A stretch of 25,324 nucleotides of DNA from a phage. A model generated the notes under the pieces. It did not search any database and was not told the origin of the DNA. It saw nothing but the letters and a program-made list of their open reading frames with translations. Below are positions 10,439 to 17,029 of this stretch, piece after piece. Both the position numbers and the translations under genes were made by a program. Position 1 is the stretch's first letter; every line of letters begins with the position of its first letter. The stretch is taken from assembly GCA_015694865.1 (NCBI GenBank), contig GCA_015694865.1_3933.1, one strand, 5' to 3'.

Positions 10439-10639
10439 TTATTCAGAGTCTGTAGCAGTCTCTTCTTTTTTAACTTCGAACTTTTCATCAACAGCATCAA
10501 GAAGTGCATCCATAGATGCTTCTTTAATATCAATACCTGTTGCTACAGATAATCTATCTGCAATTGCCATGATAGTGTTCTGCATAAATTCTAGCTTTTT
10601 ATTAGCTTCATAAAGTTCTTTGTAAACGGTCTCACTCAT
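10439..10639 (-). CDS. small hypothetical protein upstream of terL
   Basis: 66 aa acidic ORF; GGAGA RBS upstream of the ATG. Confidence 0.4.
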   Translation of the reverse strand: MSETVYKELYEANKKLEFMQNTIMAIADRLSVATGIDIKEASMDALLDAVDEKFEVKKEETATDSE

Positions 10640-10861: not shown

Positions 10862-10937
10862 TGGAGAATCCGAAGGGACTCGAACCCTTATAAACCTGTT
10901 TTGCAGACAGGCACATAGCCATTTCTGTCACGGATTC
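10862..10937 (-). tRNA. tRNA-Cys (anticodon GCA)
   Basis: 76 nt on reverse complement; acceptor GAATCCG/CGGATTC, T-arm AAGGG-TTCGAGT-CCCTT, anticodon loop CTGCAAA, CCA encoded. Confidence 0.8.
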
Positions 10938-10941
10938 AAAT

Positions 10942-11034
10942 TGGAGGAAGATACCAGACTTGAACTGGTACACCGATTTCTCAGCTACTGGCAGTTTAGC
11001 AAACTGCTCCCTTACCTTTTAGGGTTAATCTTCC
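10942..11034 (-). tRNA. tRNA-Ser (anticodon GCT), class II long variable arm
   Basis: 93 nt; acceptor GGAAGAT/ATCTTCC, anticodon stem GCAGT/ACTGC with loop TTGCTAA, about 21-nt variable arm, T-arm ACCAG-TTCAAGT-CTGGT, CCA encoded. Confidence 0.75.
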
Positions 11035-11035
11035 A

Positions 11036-11770
11036 TTATTTCTGTAATGCGTTCTTCATTTCTGGTGTTGCAATAGTGTCAATTACACCAGTTTTACAGG
11101 CATCATCAAACCAGTCTGGTAAGATACCTGCTAAGAACCCATTGATATTCGTTTTAAGGTACTCTGCAATAAGGGCAGCTTCTTCTTCAATCATCTGCAC
11201 AACTTCATCTGCATAAGCTGTAATCTTTGAGATACCTTCATTAATCTTACTGACAGCTTGGTTAGCTAAATCAGAAACAGTATCAAGACCCTTGTCAATA
11301 GCGTCTTGTAAGTCACTTAATACATCGTTAACACTCTCTAGTGTACTGTTAATCGTATCAATAGCTTTTTGACCATATTCTGTAGCAACACCCATAATAC
11401 CACTGAACGGTGTACAACCAACTTGTTCTCCTGCTGCACCCATAACATTGGAATATCCCTTTGCTACCTGCATACGTGATGAAAACTCATCAATAGATTT
11501 TTGACCGTAGTCTGTCAGGGTCTTAGTAGTTGCTGTAGTGCTTGTAAGGCTTGTTGTAAAGCTGTTTAGAAGGATTGTTGTAAGTCCAGCAGCAACAAGT
11601 TTCTCCTGCATTGTAGGGTCTGTTACAGAACTAATAGAGCTTACAAGTGATGTAGAAGCAGCTACGGTTCCACCGAGAACTGCTGCACCAGTAATAAGTG
11701 GGTTAGAAAACCCTTTACCGGTTTTTAAGAGATTAAAAATCTCCTTACCTTGTTCTGTCATCTCTTTCAT
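11036..11770 (-). CDS. hypothetical protein with N-terminal hydrophobic segment and long helical C-terminal region, embedded in the tRNA array
   Basis: ORF 11036..11833 trimmed to the internal Met at 11770 (AAAGG RBS) because the longer start would overlap tRNA-Phe; hydrophobic stretch LITGAAVLGGTVAASTSLVSSI. Confidence 0.5.
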   Translation of the reverse strand: MKEMTEQGKEIFNLLKTGKGFSNPLITGAAVLGGTVAASTSLVSSISSVTDPTMQEKLVAAGLTTILLNSFTTSLTSTTATTKTLTDYGQKSIDEFSSRMQVAKGYSNVMGAAGEQVGCTPFSGIMGVATEYGQKAIDTINSTLESVNDVLSDLQDAIDKGLDTVSDLANQAVSKINEGISKITAYADEVVQMIEEEAALIAEYLKTNINGFLAGILPDWFDDACKTGVIDTIATPEMKNALQK

Positions 11771-11786
11771 TAAGCACCTTTGAAAT

Positions 11787-11863
11787 TGGTAGTCCAGTGG
11801 GATTTGAACCCTCTTCTCATGTTTTTCAGACACGCGCTTTAACCATATAAGCTACTTGGACTA
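11787..11863 (-). tRNA. tRNA-Phe (anticodon GAA), acceptor/D-arm register ambiguous
   Basis: T-arm GAGGG-TTCAAAT-CCCAC, anticodon stem CGTGT/ACATG with loop CTGAAAA; the acceptor can pair as TAGTCCA/TGGACTA or a shifted register, so the ends are +/-2 nt. Confidence 0.55.
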
Positions 11864-11868
11864 TAAAT

Positions 11869-11944
11869 TGGGGTGACCTACGGGATTTGAACCCGTATAG
11901 ACCATGTTCACAGCATGGGTCATTACCATTTATGATAAGGCCAC
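11869..11944 (-). tRNA. tRNA-His (anticodon GTG)
   Basis: 76 nt; acceptor GTGGCCT/AGGTCAC, D-stem TCAT/ATGA, anticodon stem CCATG/CATGG with loop CTGTGAA, T-arm ACGGG-TTCAAAT-CCCGT, discriminator C, CCA encoded. Confidence 0.8.
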
Positions 11945-11975
11945 ATTTAAGGACTCTCGTAAGAACCCTTAGAAG

Positions 11976-12051
11976 TGGCAGCGGCATAAGGATTTGAACC
12001 TTAATAGGACAGCTTCAGAGACTGTTGCATTGCCAGTTATGCTATACCGCT
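11976..12051 (-). tRNA. tRNA-Gln (anticodon CTG)
   Basis: 76 nt; acceptor AGCGGTA/TGCCGCT, D-stem GCAT/ATGC, anticodon loop CTCTGAA, T-arm TAAGG-TTCAAAT-CCTTA, CCA encoded. Confidence 0.75.
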
Positions 12052-12056
12052 AAATT

Positions 12057-12135
12057 TGGTACTCCATATCGGATTCGAACCGATACATAACACAGATTTT
12101 AAGTCTGGCCTCTCTGCCAATTGGAGTAATGGAGC
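12057..12135 (-). tRNA. tRNA with Leu-type anticodon TAA but short variable region (atypical; isotype uncertain)
   Basis: 79 nt; acceptor GCTCCAT/ATGGAGT, T-arm ATCGG-TTCGAAT-CCGAT, best anticodon loop CTTAAAA on a 4-bp stem; no class II long arm. Confidence 0.5.
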
Positions 12136-12137
12136 AT

Positions 12138-12213
12138 TGGTGGGGGATGTTGGAATTGAACCAACTTCTTCGATTTCAAAGACCGAGGTTTTAACCTTGT
12201 AAACTAATCCCCT
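12138..12213 (-). tRNA. tRNA-Gln (anticodon TTG)
   Basis: 76 nt; T-arm GTTGG-TTCAATT-CCAAC, D-stem GTTT/AAAC, anticodon stem TCGGT/ATCGA with loop CTTTGAA; position 1-72 is an A-C mismatch. Confidence 0.7.
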
Positions 12214-12221
12214 TTAAATCT

Positions 12222-12779
12222 TTACTTTCTCAGTGGATGAATAAAGAATGCCAACATAACTCTTTCCCTTGAGAATGCTCTTTCTTCTGGGACAACACTT
12301 TTTAGTTTCCATCCAATATAAATTCTCCAGTAAAACTGTTTACCAAAGACTTTAATTGATGGGATAAAAGCGAATAATCCCCAAGCATTACTGTTCCACA
12401 TTAGGAGATAACCTGTCTGATTATCTTCAGGGTCAGAACTTACGTTGATATTACCTTTCCACTTAGTAACATCTTTTACATCTCTTCCTAATACATGGTA
12501 AGAGAAGTTATAGGCTTTGTTTCTCCAGAGCCATCCGACTCTCTGCATGTAGACACCCAGCTTACCAATCTTTCTAATCTTAGCCCATCGTTCGATATGA
12601 CCTTCGTCACCATCAATTGGGTTGTCATATGTCTCCATCCATCTAAATCCGAAAGGTAAGTGGCCTTTCTTCTCACTGTAAAATGGAACTACGAAAGGTG
12701 CTAAGATAACTGCTAAGGTTGCTGCTAATGGTTCTAGCAAAGCTAGGAAAATCCATGAAGCATATTTTAAATATCTCAT
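12222..12779 (-). CDS. hypothetical membrane-anchored protein embedded in the tRNA array
   Basis: 185 aa ORF; N-terminal hydrophobic helix (ASWIFLALLEPLAATLAVILAPFVVPF), Trp-rich soluble part; coupled to the upstream small ORF. Confidence 0.5.
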   Translation of the reverse strand: MRYLKYASWIFLALLEPLAATLAVILAPFVVPFYSEKKGHLPFGFRWMETYDNPIDGDEGHIERWAKIRKIGKLGVYMQRVGWLWRNKAYNFSYHVLGRDVKDVTKWKGNINVSSDPEDNQTGYLLMWNSNAWGLFAFIPSIKVFGKQFYWRIYIGWKLKSVVPEERAFSRERVMLAFFIHPLRK

Positions 12780-13018
12780 CGTCTAATCCTTGTAAGGAGA
12801 TAAATGTTATTATTCGTTTCTAAACCTTCTGGTAAAACTGTCTCAAAAATAACACTCTTTAGCTGTCTACCACCAAAACAATCACGTATAAATCTTTCTA
12901 CTCTAGCGGGGTCACATAAGTACCCTACTTTTAAGAAAATGTGGTGTTCAACACCAATGACCCTGACAAACTCAATATTCTCACAGTTTTCATGTTCAAC
13001 TACTGTTAATGTTTGCAT
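12776..13018 (-). CDS. hypothetical small protein (coupled to 12222..12779)
   Basis: 80 aa ORF; its stop overlaps the start of the downstream ORF (ATGA). Confidence 0.4.
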   Translation of the reverse strand: MQTLTVVEHENCENIEFVRVIGVEHHIFLKVGYLCDPARVERFIRDCFGGRQLKSVIFETVLPEGLETNNNIYLLTRIRR

Positions 13019-13035
13019 AGTATCACCTTTTTATC

Positions 13036-13111
13036 TGGCGCAGGATAAGGGATTCGAACCCCTATTAACAGCTTCGTAGACTGTTGCTCTATCCATTTGA
13101 ACTAATCCTGC
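13036..13111 (-). tRNA. tRNA-Arg (anticodon ACG)
   Basis: 76 nt; acceptor GCAGGAT/ATCCTGC, D-stem GTTC/GAGC, anticodon loop CTACGAA, T-arm AGGGG-TTCGAAT-CCCTT, CCA encoded. Confidence 0.8.
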
Positions 13112-13116
13112 AAAAT

Positions 13117-13194
13117 TGGTGTTCCAAGACGGATTCGAACCGTCACTAATACAAGGTTTGAGCTTACATCCTCTGCCAATTGGGATACTGGAAC
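13117..13194 (-). tRNA. tRNA with Leu-type anticodon CAA but short variable region (atypical; isotype uncertain)
   Basis: 78 nt; acceptor GTTCCAG/TTGGAAC, T-arm GACGG-TTCGAAT-CCGTC, D-loop AATTGGCAGAG shared with the 12057..12135 gene, anticodon loop CTCAAAC. Confidence 0.5.
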
Positions 13195-13195
13195 A

Positions 13196-13269
13196 TGGTA
13201 CTCACTAAAGGACTTGAACCTTTTCTTCATCTTGTAAGGGTGATGTTTTACCATATAAACTAAGCGAGT
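13196..13269 (-). tRNA. tRNA-Val (anticodon TAC)
   Basis: 74 nt; acceptor ACTCGCT/AGTGAGT, D-stem GTTT/AAAC, anticodon loop CTTACAA, T-arm AAAGG-TTCAAGT-CCTTT, CCA encoded; short variable loop. Confidence 0.65.
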
Positions 13270-13364
13270 GTGAAAGAGGTCTGAAGTTGTGCCGCTAACT
13301 CAACTCCGTGGAATTTGTTACGGTCTTCAGTTGACACCAGCGGTCTTTCACTTGACCTCTGAAT

Positions 13365-13441
13365 TGGTGCTGCTCACAGGACTCGAACCCGCATTTCCAT
13401 CCTTACAAGGGATGTGTAATAGCCAATTATACGAAAGCAGC
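13365..13441 (-). tRNA. tRNA-Thr (anticodon TGT)
   Basis: 77 nt; acceptor GCTGCTT/GAGCAGC, anticodon stem CATCC/GGATG with loop CTTGTAA, T-arm GCGGG-TTCGAGT-CCTGT, CCA encoded. Confidence 0.75.
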
Positions 13442-13448
13442 ATTAATT

Positions 13449-13524
13449 TGGAGCATCCAGAGGGAATCGAACCCTCAACCTCAGTTTGGAAGACTGTAAT
13501 TTTCCCGTTTAAACTATGGATGCA
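13449..13524 (-). tRNA. tRNA-Gly (anticodon TCC)
   Basis: 76 nt; acceptor GCATCCA/TGGATGC, anticodon loop CTTCCAA, T-arm GAGGG-TTCGATT-CCCTC, CCA encoded. Confidence 0.7.
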
Positions 13525-13529
13525 CTAAT

Positions 13530-13605
13530 TGGTGGAGAAGCAGGGAATTGAACCCTGTACTTAAGTTTGCAAAACTTATGTTTTAACCATGTAAACTACA
13601 TCCCC
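13530..13605 (-). tRNA. tRNA-Ala (anticodon TGC)
   Basis: 76 nt; G3-U70 wobble pair in the acceptor stem (Ala identity element), anticodon stem TAAGT/ACTTA with loop TTTGCAA, T-arm CAGGG-TTCAATT-CCCTG, CCA encoded. Confidence 0.75.
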
Positions 13606-13611
13606 AATGTA

Positions 13612-13687
13612 TGGTACAGGTGGAGGGAATTGAACCCATCGTCTTACTGATTAAGAGTCAGCCGCATAACCATTTTGCTACACCTGC
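13612..13687 (-). tRNA. tRNA-Lys (anticodon CTT)
   Basis: 76 nt; acceptor GCAGGTG/CACCTGT, anticodon stem GCTGA/TCAGT with loop CTCTTAA, T-loop TTCAATT, CCA encoded. Confidence 0.7.
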
Positions 13688-13694
13688 ATTAATT

Positions 13695-13772
13695 TGGTAG
13701 GAGACAAGGGATTCGAACCCTCAAACACCAACTTCTAAGGATGGTAGGTTTACCAATTACCGTCAATCTCCC
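13695..13772 (-). tRNA. tRNA with Leu-type anticodon TAG but short variable region (atypical; isotype uncertain)
   Basis: 78 nt; acceptor GGGAGAT/GTCTCCT, T-arm GAGGG-TTCGAAT-CCCTT, anticodon loop CTTAGAA on stem CCATC/GTTGG; D-arm poorly paired. Confidence 0.45.
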
Positions 13773-14028
13773 ATTAAATCTTTTTAGAGAACTTCTAAGA
13801 ACCTAAGCAACAAGGTTCCACAACAAGCTGTAATAACCTTAGAAGCCCTCTAAAAAGACCTAAAAAGGTCTTTGCATAGTCTTGTTTAATCCGGTGACTA
13901 GAACCTTTGGAGAGCTTGATATTATCTCTTCTCCGTGACACCTACTAGGTGCTTTACTGTGCTTGTACGACAATACACGAGGGATACCAAAGCAACATCC
14001 GAATGAAGCTTGGCTTTAAACCTTATTA

Positions 14029-14118
14029 GGCGGTAAGTAAAGGAGTCGAACCCTCACCGTATCTCTACAGTGGCAACTGTTTTCAAGACAGTTTGGCTAC
14101 CATTAGCCGCTACCTACC
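14029..14118 (-). tRNA. tRNA-Ser (anticodon TGA), class II
   Basis: About 88 nt; acceptor GGTAGGT/ACTTACC, D-stem GGC/GCC, anticodon stem ACTGT/ACAGT with loop CTTGAAA, long variable arm, T-loop TTCGACT; only CC of CCA encoded. Confidence 0.7.
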
Positions 14119-14131
14119 CCTAATAAGACTT

Positions 14132-14214
14132 TGGCATGGGACGGAGGAGTTGAACCCCTTTGAAACGGTTTTGGAGGCCGTTGCTCATGCCTTAGAGTCT
14201 TAACATCGTCCCAT
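14132..14214 (-). tRNA. tRNA-Trp-like (anticodon CCA) with abnormally long D-region; possibly a tRNA-like ncRNA
   Basis: 83 nt; perfect 7-bp acceptor ATGGGAC/GTCCCAT, T-loop TTCAACT, anticodon arm ACGGC-CTCCAAA-ACCGT, but about 16 nt between the D-stem strands. Confidence 0.5.
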
Positions 14215-14356
14215 ATTATAATTCGAAGCTTACCGTATTATCTCAACACTGTAAAGCCCCTTCTCAGATTATTTACATGTTCTGGAAAACATGAGATACA
14301 GACCACCTCCCTACAGGAAGACCCGCTTAGGTCGTCTAAGTAATCTGCTAACTAAT

Positions 14357-14433
14357 TGGCACACCCTACAGGATTCGAACCTGTAACTAACGATTTAGAA
14401 GACCGTTGCTCTATCCAATTGAACTAAGGGTGC
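14357..14433 (-). tRNA. tRNA-Arg (anticodon TCT)
   Basis: 77 nt; acceptor GCACCCT/AGGGTGT, D-stem GTTC/GAGC, anticodon stem ACGGT/ATCGT with loop CTTCTAA, T-arm ACAGG-TTCGAAT-CCTGT, CCA encoded. Confidence 0.8.
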
Positions 14434-14636
14434 ATTAATCTTTAAAGACTCTCTTAGAAAGCCCTTAAAGATGCCCACCTTATTAATCATACCGTGGGCT
14501 AGTACGCCAAATTCTTTGATGAGGGATTGGAAGACCTCACTGGTGTTTAGCCTATCAAGCTACTGCCAGAAAAACATTGTCGTTTGCATTTATTTTAAAT
14601 TTGCAAAATAGACGCTACGCAACGAAAACTAAGGTT

Positions 14637-14665
14637 ACTATAAAGTAGTCACATCTCAATGTCAA
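14637..14665 (-). promoter_or_regulatory. sigma70-like promoter on minus strand (TTGACA-17 bp-TATAGT)
   Basis: Plus-strand tgtcaa at 14660-14665 and actata at 14637-14642 give, on the minus strand, -35 TTGACA, a 17-nt spacer and -10 TATAGT, pointing at tRNA-Arg(TCT) and downstream tRNAs. Confidence 0.55.
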
Positions 14666-14680
14666 CAACTTTATTGAAAT

Positions 14681-14756
14681 TGGTACTGGTAGGTGGAATC
14701 GAACCACCGATGTTCCCTTATCAGGGGAGTGTTATAACCTTCTTAACTATACCAGC
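14681..14756 (-). tRNA. tRNA-Ile (anticodon GAT)
   Basis: 76 nt; acceptor GCTGGTA/TACCAGT, D-stem GTTA/TAAC, anticodon loop CTGATAA, T-arm GGTGG-TTCGATT-CCACC, CCA encoded. Confidence 0.75.
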
Positions 14757-14757
14757 T

Positions 14758-14834
14758 TGGAGGTTCAGATGGGATTCGAACCCATCGCCTGTCAGATTAA
14801 AAGTCTGCCGCATCACCATTCTGCTACACTTCCA
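14758..14834 (-). tRNA. tRNA-Lys-like (anticodon TTT) with poorly paired acceptor stem (possible pseudo-tRNA)
   Basis: Paralogous in sequence to the 13612..13687 tRNA-Lys; good T-arm ATGGG-TTCGAAT-CCCAT and anticodon arm GCAGA-CTTTTAA-TCTGA, but acceptor strands GGAAGTG vs CTGAACC pair at only 3 of 7 positions. Confidence 0.45.
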
Positions 14835-14837
14835 TTA

Positions 14838-14981
14838 AATTATCTTTGTAGATAAGCTACCCAGACTTGCTTAATGTCTGTAGCGATGTGCCTTTTTGGG
14901 TTTAAATCTAGAATTTACCCTTTCACCCTTTGTGGTCGCATACTCACAGGTAAGCTTAATAACTTATCTACAAAGATAATT
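14838..14981. repeat. 19-bp perfect inverted repeat (14838-14856 / 14963-14981) flanking a 106-bp non-coding segment
   Basis: aattatctttgtagataag at 14838-14856 is the exact reverse complement of cttatctacaaagataatt at 14963-14981. Confidence 0.7.
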
Positions 14982-15030
14982 ACCAGACCGTTGTTTATCA
15001 TCTTAAGTGCTACCATTACACCAACTCGAC

Positions 15031-15080
15031 ATCTGCCGAGTGAAGGAATCGAACCTTCGCCTTTTCTTTACCGGAGAAAT
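15031..15080 (-). ncRNA. tRNA-like fragment (T-arm plus 3' acceptor strand without a pairing 5' strand)
   Basis: Reverse complement gives TTTCT-CCGGTAA-AGAAA, then GAAGG-TTCGATT-CCTTC-ACTCGGC; no complementary 5' acceptor strand or recognisable D-arm within about 80 nt upstream. Confidence 0.35.
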
Positions 15081-15120
15081 AGATTGTTTAAGTTTTGCTG
15101 AATACGGTCTTCTGCAAAAT

Positions 15121-15197
15121 TGGAGGCGGGTGCAGGAGTCGAACCTACCGATACCATGCTAATGAGACATGTGAGACGCCCTTTCTCTATACCCGCA
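15121..15197 (-). tRNA. tRNA-Met (anticodon CAT; elongator, initiator or Ile2 not distinguishable)
   Basis: 77 nt; T-arm GTAGG-TTCGACT-CCTGC, anticodon stem CATGT/GCATG with loop CTCATTA, acceptor ACCCGCC with a 1-72 T-C mismatch in the best register, CCA encoded. Confidence 0.6.
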
Positions 15198-15287
15198 ATT
15201 CTCAATGACCAGACCAAATATCTTCTTTGTCCGATTTCGTGTCAGATGAGTAGATTAAGTTTGCTGTAATTGGTCTTCTGTCAAAAC

Positions 15288-15365
15288 TGGCGTTCCAGAA
15301 GGGATTTGAACCCTCAGATATCCACTTTGAAAGAGTGGTGACTTTACCATTTTGTCTACTGGAAC
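15288..15365 (-). tRNA. tRNA-Glu (anticodon TTC)
   Basis: 78 nt; acceptor GTTCCAG/CTGGAAC, anticodon stem CCACT/AGTGG with loop CTTTCAA, T-arm GAGGG-TTCAAAT-CCCTT, CCA encoded. Confidence 0.7.
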
Positions 15366-15375
15366 ATTAATTTGT

Positions 15376-15449
15376 TCTCTGTTGGAGGACTTGAACCTCC
15401 GGCCTTACCGCCCCAAACGGAACGCTCTACCAAGCTGAGCTAAACAGAG
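15376..15449 (-). tRNA. tRNA-Pro (anticodon TGG)
   Basis: 74 nt without CCA; C1-G72 pair, D-arm TAGCTCAGCTTGGTAGAGC, anticodon loop TTTGGGG with G37, T-arm GGAGG-TTCAAGT-CCTCC. Confidence 0.75.
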
Positions 15450-15567
15450 ATAAACTTTTCAAACTCTATGTAACCACTTTAACATTATTTTTTAGTGGTT
15501 GTCAAGAACTTTTTTAAAATATTTTTCAGTATCTTAGAAAAGCTCTCATTTCGTTTCTATGTAGAAC

Positions 15568-15614: not shown

Positions 15615-17029
15615 TTACCAGATGTAACGGTCAATCATTACTGCTTTGAGCATTACACTGATTGGGTCAAACTTCTCACCACCAAGCAGAGCTTTTAAAG
15701 TAGCTGGAGAAAAACCAGATACCATTGCTACACCGTTATCCTTAACAGACACTTCGCAAGTACCATTACGGTTTGCTAAGTACCAGAATACCAGTTGAGG
15801 CATTTCGTATCCAGCTTTTTTGTACTTACTCTGAATTGCTTCAAAGTTTGTACGACCGTTAGCTCCATCAACCTGATTGAACTCCATATCGGAGAAGATG
15901 ATAAGCTTACTTGCATGTCTTTCTTAGTCAAGTTGTTTCTCTTACCTACCTCAAGAATCCGGTCAAAAGCTGCTTGTAAGTTAGTTGAGCCATATTCAAC
16001 ATGTCGCATCACCTGACGATGACGGTTTCGTAAATCACCACTCAGTTCGATGAAGTGAGGGTTTGTTGAATAAACCATTAACTCATCCTTAAAGCAACCT
16101 GTATTGCGTTCTGCTACATACAAGGCAAGGGATACACCAATATCAAGGGCAGTGATTGAACCAAGATTCACCCAAGACATTGAGCTTGAAACATCAGTCA
16201 TACACAAGATGTTTTCACCTTCTGCCATCCAGTTTGGTAGTGCTTTCCACTGCTCATTGGCAACATCTGCATTACCATGCTTGATAGACTTAATCACATC
16301 GTATGGGTAAACAGCACCAGCGTTAATCTTAGTCTCACCTTTTGATAAGGACTCAATGTAAGCTTTGTAACGTTCTCCATCCTTACGGTTAAACAGTTTT
16401 TGGTAACGTGCAGCAGCAAGTGAAGGAGTCTTACTGTAGTCAATCTTACCAAACTCATTAGCAGAGATTTTTTGCTCAACTGTATCAGATAGTGCAGACA
16501 ACAGTGTGCGGTACTCTTTCTCACTCAAGTTGGCAAACTTGCAGAAACGTTTTACAAACTGCTTATGACGTGGTTTGACTCGTGGTAACCACTTAGCCGC
16601 CAAACCTGCTGTTGCAGGTTCTAGTAATGCTGCTTCTAGATGTTTGAAGGCATCTGTCTCGAAACGAGTACCTACGAAGATTTTGAAGTCATCAAAACGA
16701 CCAAGTTCTGCAATCTTATCCATAATGCGAAGAACCTGCGTAGGCTCTAAAACTTTGTCTTCAATCGCTTGAAGTAAAACAGTTCTGAAGGCTTTACGCT
16801 CACCCATACCTTCTCGTACATCTCGCATATGAAGCAAAATACGAACTGCAACATCAACATCCTCACGCAAAGCTTTGTAGAACAGGTCTGGTAAGATTTC
16901 TACGTTGCTACGGCTTGAACCAGCAGCTTTGTAAAAGTCTACAAGAGCAGACATTGATGAAGTATGGTTTACAGCACCATTTTCAGTTCGACCTGCATGA
17001 AGGTGCGCATGTTTAAATAATTCGCTCAT
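15615..17029 (-). CDS. Ro60-like vWA-domain protein, interrupted by an apparent frameshift near 15885-15926
   Basis: Two overlapping minus-strand ORFs (15776..17029 and 15615..15887) in different frames; MIDAS-like TDVSSSM motif in the first; the second frame reads ...HASKLIIFSDMEFNQ..., typical of the end of a vWA fold. Ro60-like (DUF2828-type) assignment is from memory. Confidence 0.6.

Follow-up and report, generated by a model that had tools for sequence, protein, structure and literature searches.

We analysed a stretch of phage DNA of 25,324 nucleotides (GenBank assembly GCA_015694865.1, contig GCA_015694865.1_3933.1; hereafter the window), in which three open reading frames (ORFs), encoding proteins of 244, 80 and 185 amino acids (aa), are embedded in an array of tRNA genes. 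All three are real, ordinary and already annotated genes of a well-known phage genus. Our best joint explanation, to which we give a probability of about 0.45, is that they are separately evolving genes carried in a tRNA transcription unit, in which the 244-aa protein (family DUF7217) would be a minor virion protein, the 185-aa protein (family DUF7338) a lysis-accessory protein and the 80-aa protein an independent third gene product. Taken part by part, the virion assignment of DUF7217, drawn by analogy with a distant homologue, appears probable, and the lysis-accessory assignment of DUF7338, read from its gene neighbourhoods, is a tentative one.

The source phage is, judged by nucleotide identity, a Felixounavirus, i.e. 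a Felix O1-like myophage. The 2.5-kb region round the ORFs matched 292 phage records, with 99% identity to Felixounavirus LF110P1 and Escherichia phage ASO1A and 95–97% identity to wV8 and Felix O1-type phages. ARAGORN called 22 tRNA genes on the minus strand (10862–15450), of which 21 were confirmed by Rfam at gathering score. As originally predicted, the three ORFs lie between tRNA genes of their own strand, which is the minus strand, in the orders tRNA-Phe/ORF244/tRNA-Ser and tRNA-Arg(ACG)/ORF80-ORF185/tRNA-Gln(UUG), at distances of 1–18 nt from the flanking tRNA genes (Table 1). The sequence AAGGTG stands 5–6 nt upstream of the ATG codons of both the 244-aa and the 80-aa gene; AAGGA precedes the start of the 185-aa gene, whose ATG shares ATGA with the stop codon of the 80-aa gene. 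An alternative GTG start of the 244-aa ORF at 11833 would give 265 aa, but overlaps tRNA-Phe. In comparisons of each ORF with four or five relatives by the Nei-Gojobori method, the ratio of nonsynonymous to synonymous substitution rates (dN/dS) was 0.05–0.11, 0.05–0.12 and 0.16–0.18 for the 244-, 185- and 80-aa genes, respectively, indicating that all three are under purifying selection. The possibility that the ORFs might be conserved in no relative and bear no coding signature, raised together with the original prediction, was thereby checked against the matching records, the ribosome-binding sites and the dN/dS values, all of which spoke for genuine genes.

Although the original prediction could not place the proteins in a known family, profile hidden Markov model searches placed all three. 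The 244-aa protein matched Pfam DUF7217 (PF23854) with 296.4 bits (E = 2.2e-88, residues 8–243; gathering cut-off, 29 bits) and the 185-aa protein matched DUF7338 (PF24027) with 209.4 bits (E = 4.3e-62, residues 1–184; gathering cut-off, 27 bits), and in PHROGs the 244-, 185- and 80-aa proteins correspond to phrog_2114, phrog_2143 and phrog_14202, respectively. DUF7217, DUF7338 and PHROG 14202 are already catalogued, function-unassigned families, to which the window adds no new element. The 244-aa and 185-aa proteins are orthologous to Felix O1 ORF49 and ORF48, and all three proteins to the products of wV8 genes 54, 53 and 52; these genes share 94–97% nucleotide identity with those of the window and lie at the corresponding places of the tRNA array, flanked by the same tRNA genes, except that Felix O1 lacks the 80-aa gene whereas wV8 has all three. 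Both of those records annotate hypothetical proteins, and elsewhere in GenBank the labels range from 'hypothetical' to 'putative membrane protein' for the 244-aa protein and at times 'holin' for the 185-aa protein.

Searches of NCBIfam and PADLOC gave no match for the 185-aa or the 80-aa protein and, for the 244-aa protein, only weak coiled-coil-type matches far below threshold (e.g. ZorA); sequence searches of the PDB with the three proteins returned coiled-coil-type noise only. No HNH, GIY-YIG or LAGLIDADG nuclease domain was found in any of them in Pfam and PHROGs. In this respect they are unlike the mobile or accessory ORFs known from other tRNA clusters, such as the HNH genes ORF44, ORF45 and ORF47 of Felix O1 and segB and trna.1-4 of T4, which are likewise protein genes among tRNA genes and whose presence, as here, varies between close relatives. 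The 244-aa gene differs from those ORFs also in being fixed, not mobile.

The AlphaFold (AF2) model of the 244-aa protein, which is acidic, consisted of helices throughout and formed a soluble bundle (mean predicted local distance difference test, pLDDT, 95.5). The long helical region originally described was accordingly recovered, but the N-terminal hydrophobic segment did not stand: the stretch is weakly hydrophobic (Kyte-Doolittle maximum, 1.62), homologues are not hydrophobic there, and in the model it is a helix inside the soluble bundle. It is not a conserved transmembrane (TM) segment. DUF7217 was present in 255 Felix/Moogle-type records at at least 80% identity and, beyond these, in Erwinia Kolesnikvirus (about 45% identity) and a Yersinia phage (36%), and in Ounavirinae, of which about 290 records contain it, its gene is always the last before a small ORF and the terminase gene. 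Because of this spread and the constant position at the terminase, we regard DUF7217 as an Ounavirinae core gene. The suggestion that the embedded ORFs are accessory cargo hence does not extend to the 244-aa gene, which is also the homologue of a virion protein; it applies to the 80-aa and 185-aa genes, whose slot was found in four states (see below).

Among 1.8 billion representative proteins the DUF7217 family comprised 25 clusters at E < 1e-3, all of 220–270 aa. Relatives in Ackermannviridae, at 26–29% identity, are encoded 3–4 genes downstream of the major capsid gene, by a YAcAr/SLOG gene and a DUF7424 gene. One of them, ORF129 of Dickeya phage LIMEstone1, matched the family profile with E = 2.4e-76 and the 244-aa protein itself with 27.6% identity (E = 4e-29). 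Its record labels it 'confirmed structural protein' and places a putative late promoter upstream of it, and the protein was detected among the virion proteins by electrospray ionization tandem mass spectrometry (25.03 kDa, 18.18% coverage, 2 peptides) (PMC3296691). The authors of that study stated that all 12 unknown structural proteins of LIMEstone1 have structural counterparts in ViI (PMC3296691). ORF129 resembles the 244-aa protein in being a DUF7217 member of 242 aa with two conserved cysteines, and differs from it in belonging to a T4-related Ackermannviridae phage, where the gene lies downstream of the capsid gene and not in a tRNA array; virion association was seen in that phage, whereas the window's protein is known from its sequence. 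By this analogy DUF7217 would be a soluble acidic helical bundle, packaged into virions as a minor component and encoded by the last gene ahead of the terminase/head module.

Several points weigh against a virion role. Its detection in particles is limited to these distant (27% identical) Ackermannviridae homologues, with 2 peptides. In Felix O1, a structural band was reported as 'Gp49', but at 51 kDa versus 26 kDa for ORF49, and its authors suspected the sheath; this report is ambiguous, and ORF49 is not in the shotgun list of the same paper. A supplementary table for VpaE1 gives the DUF7217 homologue as hypothetical only, and the literature searched holds no experiment on any of the three proteins. 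Furthermore, reverse transcription PCR (RT-PCR) of Felix O1 put the maximal expression of ORF48 and ORF49 at 5 min, an unusual time for genes of lysis or virion structure, although the same table also places the capsid gene at 5 min. DUF7217 could instead be a non-structural membrane or cytoplasmic protein whose detection in virions was adventitious. That explanation, which we consider improbable, draws on the naming of the protein as a membrane protein in several GenBank records, on the recovery of clearly non-structural LIMEstone1 proteins at low coverage in the same analysis, on the early RT-PCR maximum and on the location of the gene within the tRNA unit, where a terminator-like site parts it from the terminase. 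On the other hand, the hydrophobic stretch is weak and unconserved and lies in a confidently modelled soluble bundle; the 18% coverage of ORF129 compares with under 5% for the suspect proteins of LIMEstone1, and the ViI counterpart was reported to be particle-associated; and the gene lies beside head genes in two phage families. The minor virion assignment is therefore retained as the probable one. Two other head-related roles were rejected, namely that of small terminase, since Ackermannviridae encode DUF7217 beside their own small terminase, and that of scaffold, since the head protease gene already bears a long C-terminal extension. A 245-aa gene adjoining DUF7338 in one distant locus (L013) was also tested as a DUF7217 relative and is not one.

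The 80-aa and 185-aa genes share a slot bounded by tRNA-Arg(ACG) and tRNA-Gln(UUG). Comparison across relatives, proposed together with the original prediction, found this slot variable and the 244-aa gene constant in Ounavirinae. Both genes are present in the window, wV8 and Citrobacter phage HP1, DUF7338 alone in Felix O1 and VpaE1, the 80-aa homologue alone in Shigella phage Sf17, with the stop codon directly against the tRNA gene, and neither in Moogle and Erwinia phage Tian. Since each gene was found alone elsewhere, the two are independent modules; the coupling originally noticed is real as an ATGA translational overlap in the window, but does not denote an obligate functional pair. The empty slot of Moogle reads CCA-ATTTAATA-GGGGATTAG, with a short spacer motif that recurs closely, as ATTTAA(A/T)AG, on either side of the inserted gene or genes in Felix O1 and HP1 (window spacers 12214–12235 and 13019–13035; loci L009, L010, L024 and L025), which suggests that cargo was gained or lost at the slot through short homology.

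For the 80-aa protein, no TM segment was predicted and no match was obtained in Pfam, NCBIfam, PADLOC or the PDB. It occurred in 70 phage records, all of Felix/Moogle type, and in seven clusters of a collection of 5.8 billion proteins. Between the 80-aa form and a 75-aa variant only one cysteine (in a CDP motif) and the motifs FET-LPE and NN-Y-L-R-R are kept. The DNA of the gene is only 76% identical (synonymous divergence, dS, about 1) to that of alleles from phages in which the genes on either side reach 95% identity (dS about 0.2), indicating an old divergent allele brought in by recombination and not relaxed constraint. It would be an independent, variably present small cytoplasmic protein that uses the same slot as DUF7338.

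The 185-aa protein had been described as membrane-anchored and Trp-rich, and this was upheld by prediction: its N-terminal hydrophobic helix is strong (Kyte-Doolittle, 2.16) and Trp makes up 5.4% of its residues. The AlphaFold model (pLDDT 93.4) has a single N-terminal helix (residues 2–33), a short helical region and a five-stranded sheet, and a fold search with this model found no solved structural relative. Structure prediction, which had been suggested as a check, gave DUF7338 one N-terminal membrane helix but no fold relative, and gave DUF7217 a soluble bundle in place of a membrane segment. In an alignment of 28 DUF7338 sequences, W9, P28, T50, D52, G57, W83, W85, R86, N87, Y90, R152, G156, W157 and K158 were invariant, and the conserved motifs were WMETYDNPIDGD, WLWRNKAYNF and GWKLK. 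The domain, of alpha+beta type, is basic (family mean net charge, +8.5) and contains 7–14 tryptophans. The spacing E49-x8-D58 was considered as a lysozyme-like catalytic motif and rejected, as E49 is unconserved and there is no lysozyme fold.

DUF7338 was found, patchily, in about 222 Felix-type records. Moogle and Kolesnikvirus are without it, and there tRNA-Arg(ACG) directly abuts tRNA-Gln. T4-like phages (Slopekvirus, Karamvirus, Dhakavirus and others) carry copies with 55–62% identity, also near tRNA genes, suggesting horizontal exchange between families that share enterobacterial hosts. DUF7338 would therefore be an optional inner-membrane-anchored protein exchanged between Felix O1-like and T4-like enterobacterial phages.

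The neighbourhoods of DUF7338 were compared in about 21 lineages sharing less than roughly 60% identity, taken from GenBank phages, public assemblies and IMG/VR (L numbers denote individual loci); IMG/VR yielded 253 DUF7338 loci altogether. An endolysin or spanin gene was found at most 3–4 genes from DUF7338 in nine of these independent contexts (binomial P about 1e-4 at a generous chance rate of 10%). In Aeh1, the order is tail fibre gp37, DUF7338, e lysozyme (+1), an ORF with a TM helix and a coiled coil, and asiA, so that DUF7338 occupies exactly the slot of T4 t. A GH108 gene lies at +2 in L015 and L106, Peptidase_M15_4 at +2 in L027, Phage_lysozyme at +3 in L086 and at +2 in the L110 cluster (with a 2-TM ORF at +3), Hydrolase_2 at +3 in L112 and Rz at +3 in L092; in L029, a complete holin, lysozyme, i-spanin and o-spanin cassette stands immediately upstream. 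These lysis genes span five families (Phage_lysozyme/GH24, GH108, Peptidase_M15_4, Hydrolase_2 and Rz). In addition, DUF7338 is repeatedly adjoined by a small protein that combines a single TM helix with a coiled coil (96 aa in L015, 114 aa in L027, ORF321w in Aeh1) and has the same architecture as Felix O1 gp79 and Moogle gp54. DUF7338 may accordingly be a lysis-accessory protein, holin-like or holin-regulating, a proposal that we rate a little short of an even chance; it would work together with the lysis machinery but would not be the essential holin. T4 RI and P2 LysA/LysB are dispensable membrane antiholins or lysis accessory proteins that tune holin timing. DUF7338 is like them in being dispensable, membrane-anchored and, in many phages, encoded near lysis cassettes alongside canonical holins, and unlike them in sharing no homology with them, the analogy being drawn from gene neighbourhood only.

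The same survey also contains points that tell against this assignment. DUF7338 is not beside lysis genes in the window or in T4-like phages, and in about 10 of the 21 contexts the genes immediately upstream encode tail fibres or tail-fibre assembly proteins. The junction between the tail-fibre genes and a lysis cassette downstream of them is where DUF7338 lies at many distant loci, and this junction is also a classic slot for unrelated accessory genes. The positive-inside rule gives an ambiguous orientation for DUF7338, and the survey relied on crude ORF calling for the IMG/VR loci and on classification by hand.

DUF7338, with or without the 80-aa protein, might instead be host-interaction cargo, a membrane protein that prevents superinfection or modifies the receptor or envelope, as the exclusion function of the original prediction would have it. 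We consider this, the main rival, unlikely, though it has evidence of its own: the distribution is patchy in Ounavirinae and yet common to several phage families at 55–62% identity, the contexts directly downstream of tail-fibre or assembly genes are a frequent place of receptor-blocking and conversion genes, the RT-PCR of Felix O1 indicated early maximal expression, and the conserved polar residues T50, D52, R86, N87, Y90, R152 and K158 suggest a ligand or catalytic site near the membrane. However, neither the 185-aa nor the 80-aa protein showed homology to described superinfection-exclusion or anti-defence families in Pfam, NCBIfam and PADLOC, the carriers are mostly virulent phages, and L029, the L110 cluster and L092 pair DUF7338 with lysis genes where no tail fibre is near. 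Nothing that we found pointed to exclusion as such, and the distant neighbourhoods point to the lysis cassette; it is because of the endolysin and spanin genes in the nine contexts that the lysis-accessory reading is favoured over exclusion.

A more specific lysis role would be that of the Felix O1-like holin itself, of class III like T4 T, in which a single TM helix is joined to a large domain in the periplasm. The genome announcement of phage Mushroom named the DUF7338 protein a class III holin, a label since copied to other records, and Felix O1 is without an assigned holin. The likeness to T4 T consists of a single N-terminal TM helix followed by a large C-terminal globular domain, and of gene position, as DUF7338 takes first place in the lysis cassettes of L015, L027 and Aeh1, in the last of which it fills the slot between the tail-fibre genes and asiA. 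Yet the Mushroom label was based on topology alone, and in its later account of Meda, a Felix O1-like phage, the same laboratory stated that it had not identified a holin. The N-terminal tail of DUF7338 is very short, the protein resembles T4 T neither in sequence or profile (Phage_holin_T; hhalign probability, 0.2%) nor in fold, and the RT-PCR peak of Felix O1 ORF48 is early (5 min). The gene is absent from Moogle and Kolesnikvirus, both of which are able to lyse their hosts, and Moogle has gp54 as putative holin, annotated by the laboratory that described Mushroom; gp54 is encoded directly downstream of the tail-fibre gene and is 92% identical to Felix O1 gp79. DUF7338 also coexists with a true T homologue in Enterobacter phage id4496, with a class II holin in the lambdoid contig L029 and, in L015 and L110, with holin-like genes of two TM segments. 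This coexistence with canonical holins and the absence from Moogle make it unlikely that DUF7338 is an essential or main holin, and we regard the class III holin proposal as very doubtful. Outside the window, the tail-fibre gene is followed by a conserved pair, a 64-aa ORF and a protein of 121–124 aa that has a single TM helix plus a coiled coil (L032, 3046–3606, Felix O1 ORF78-79; L031, 36143–36711, Moogle gp54-55), the latter protein being the 'putative holin' of Moogle.

The lysis-accessory reading can be carried further. DUF7338 could represent an unrecognised, widespread lysis class of new fold, a membrane-anchored partner (holin or holin regulator) of gp79-type proteins. By this reading it was passed horizontally among Felix O1-like, T4-like, Mu/P2-like, lambdoid and jumbo phages, and was parked in the tRNA operon of the Felix O1-like ones; this we offer as a speculation, less probable than the accessory role in its general form.

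As for expression of the three ORFs, two sigma-70-like promoter matches with TTGACA boxes just upstream of the first tRNA gene, and a terminator-like hairpin with T6 behind it, located between tRNA-Cys and the 66-aa ORF/terminase, are the candidate start and end of a tRNA/ORF transcription unit (Table 1). A further strong promoter match (11/12) lies inside the array. Against these sites stands the fact that promoters and terminator alike come from a consensus pattern scan only. If the candidate sites are used, all three ORFs would belong to the tRNA transcription unit, and ORF messages with leaders of 16–17 nt holding the Shine-Dalgarno sequence would be freed by tRNA end-processing of a polycistronic precursor. 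Because the ORFs lie so close to the tRNA genes, with the ribosome-binding sites inside the spacers, such release from the tRNA precursor is probable.

Table 1. Positions in the window of the three ORFs, their Shine-Dalgarno sequences, the flanking tRNA genes and the candidate transcription signals
Feature	Position	Strand	Basis
ORF244, 244 aa from ATG, DUF7217 / phrog_2114	11036..11770	-	Pfam, AF2, dN/dS
ORF185, 185 aa, DUF7338 / phrog_2143	12222..12779	-	Pfam, AF2, dN/dS
ORF80, 80 aa, phrog_14202	12776..13018	-	PHROGs, dN/dS
Shine-Dalgarno AAGGTG of the 244-aa gene, within the 16-nt spacer after tRNA-Phe	11775..11780	-	upstream sequence
Shine-Dalgarno AAGGTG of the 80-aa gene, within the 17-nt spacer after tRNA-Arg	13024..13029	-	upstream sequence
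tRNA-Ser(GCU), begins 1 nt past the 244-aa stop codon	10942..11034	-	ARAGORN, Rfam
tRNA-Phe, directly upstream of the 244-aa gene	11787..11862	-	ARAGORN, Rfam
tRNA-Gln(UUG), downstream edge of the variable cargo slot	12138..12213	-	ARAGORN, Rfam, slot comparison
tRNA-Arg(ACG), upstream edge of the variable cargo slot	13036..13111	-	ARAGORN, Rfam, slot comparison
Sigma-70-like promoter matches (TTGACA boxes), candidate	15596-15568, 15505-15476	-	consensus scan
Sigma-70-like promoter match (11/12) inside the array, candidate	14665-14637	-	consensus scan
Terminator-like hairpin then T6, candidate	10699-10682	-	consensus scan

Downstream of the array, the minus strand continues with the 66-aa ORF, the large terminase, a Mu-type portal and an S49 head protease. 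The 66-aa ORF (10439–10639, minus strand), directly upstream of the large terminase gene, is conserved and strongly constrained by purifying selection (dN/dS about 0.04) and is without a family match; no small terminase is annotated in Felix O1-like phages. Within the array, the tRNA-Met called by ARAGORN at 15121–15197 (minus strand) gave no match to the Rfam tRNA model even at E <= 0.5. Four gaps of 240–290 nt free of tRNA genes (13772–14029, 14118–14357, 14433–14681 and 14830–15121) contain no coding-strand ORF of at least 60 aa and only sub-threshold tRNA-like or tmRNA-like matches (e.g. 15041–15091, 14138–14212 and 14434–14623); the matching regions of Felix O1 hold HNH endonuclease genes and tRNA-Asn/Tyr/Asp.

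The gene directly upstream of the array (15615–17029, minus strand) corresponds to Felix O1 ORF42, its homologue ('RNA-binding protein'), and carries Pfam DUF2828 and DUF7788/VWA, a domain pair which may resemble the TROVE plus vWA plan of Ro60-type RNA-binding proteins. Compared with Felix O1 and Moogle, it has a 1-nt deletion at about 15914 (GACATG-CAAGT versus GATATGCCAAGT), which splits it into overlapping ORFs at 15776–17029 and 15615–15887; the split may mean that the gene is a pseudogene, or may stem from an error of sequencing or from programmed frameshifting. Two of the records compared look like database anomalies, namely GU169904.1, a 147-kb entry named 'Staphylococcus phage SA1' that holds a Felix O1-like region of 94.6% identity, and PV390658.1, Escherichia phage P54 (88 kb, Felix-like), which is filed under Tequatrovirus.

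The direct value of these results is modest, in that hundreds of Felix O1-like genomes already carry annotations of these ORFs, and Pfam and PHROG entries exist for them. Re-annotation of DUF7217 as a probable minor virion protein is reasonable, and the 'holin' label for DUF7338, spread by automated pipelines, is a guess from topology and is best regarded as unproven. The four occupancy states of a single inter-tRNA slot provide a clean small example of cargo turnover in phage tRNA arrays. Felix O1-like phages are widely used in biocontrol of Salmonella and E. coli, and the recurring neighbourhood of DUF7338, a TM/coiled-coil protein and an endolysin leads to a testable candidate pair for their holin, gp79 and ORF48.

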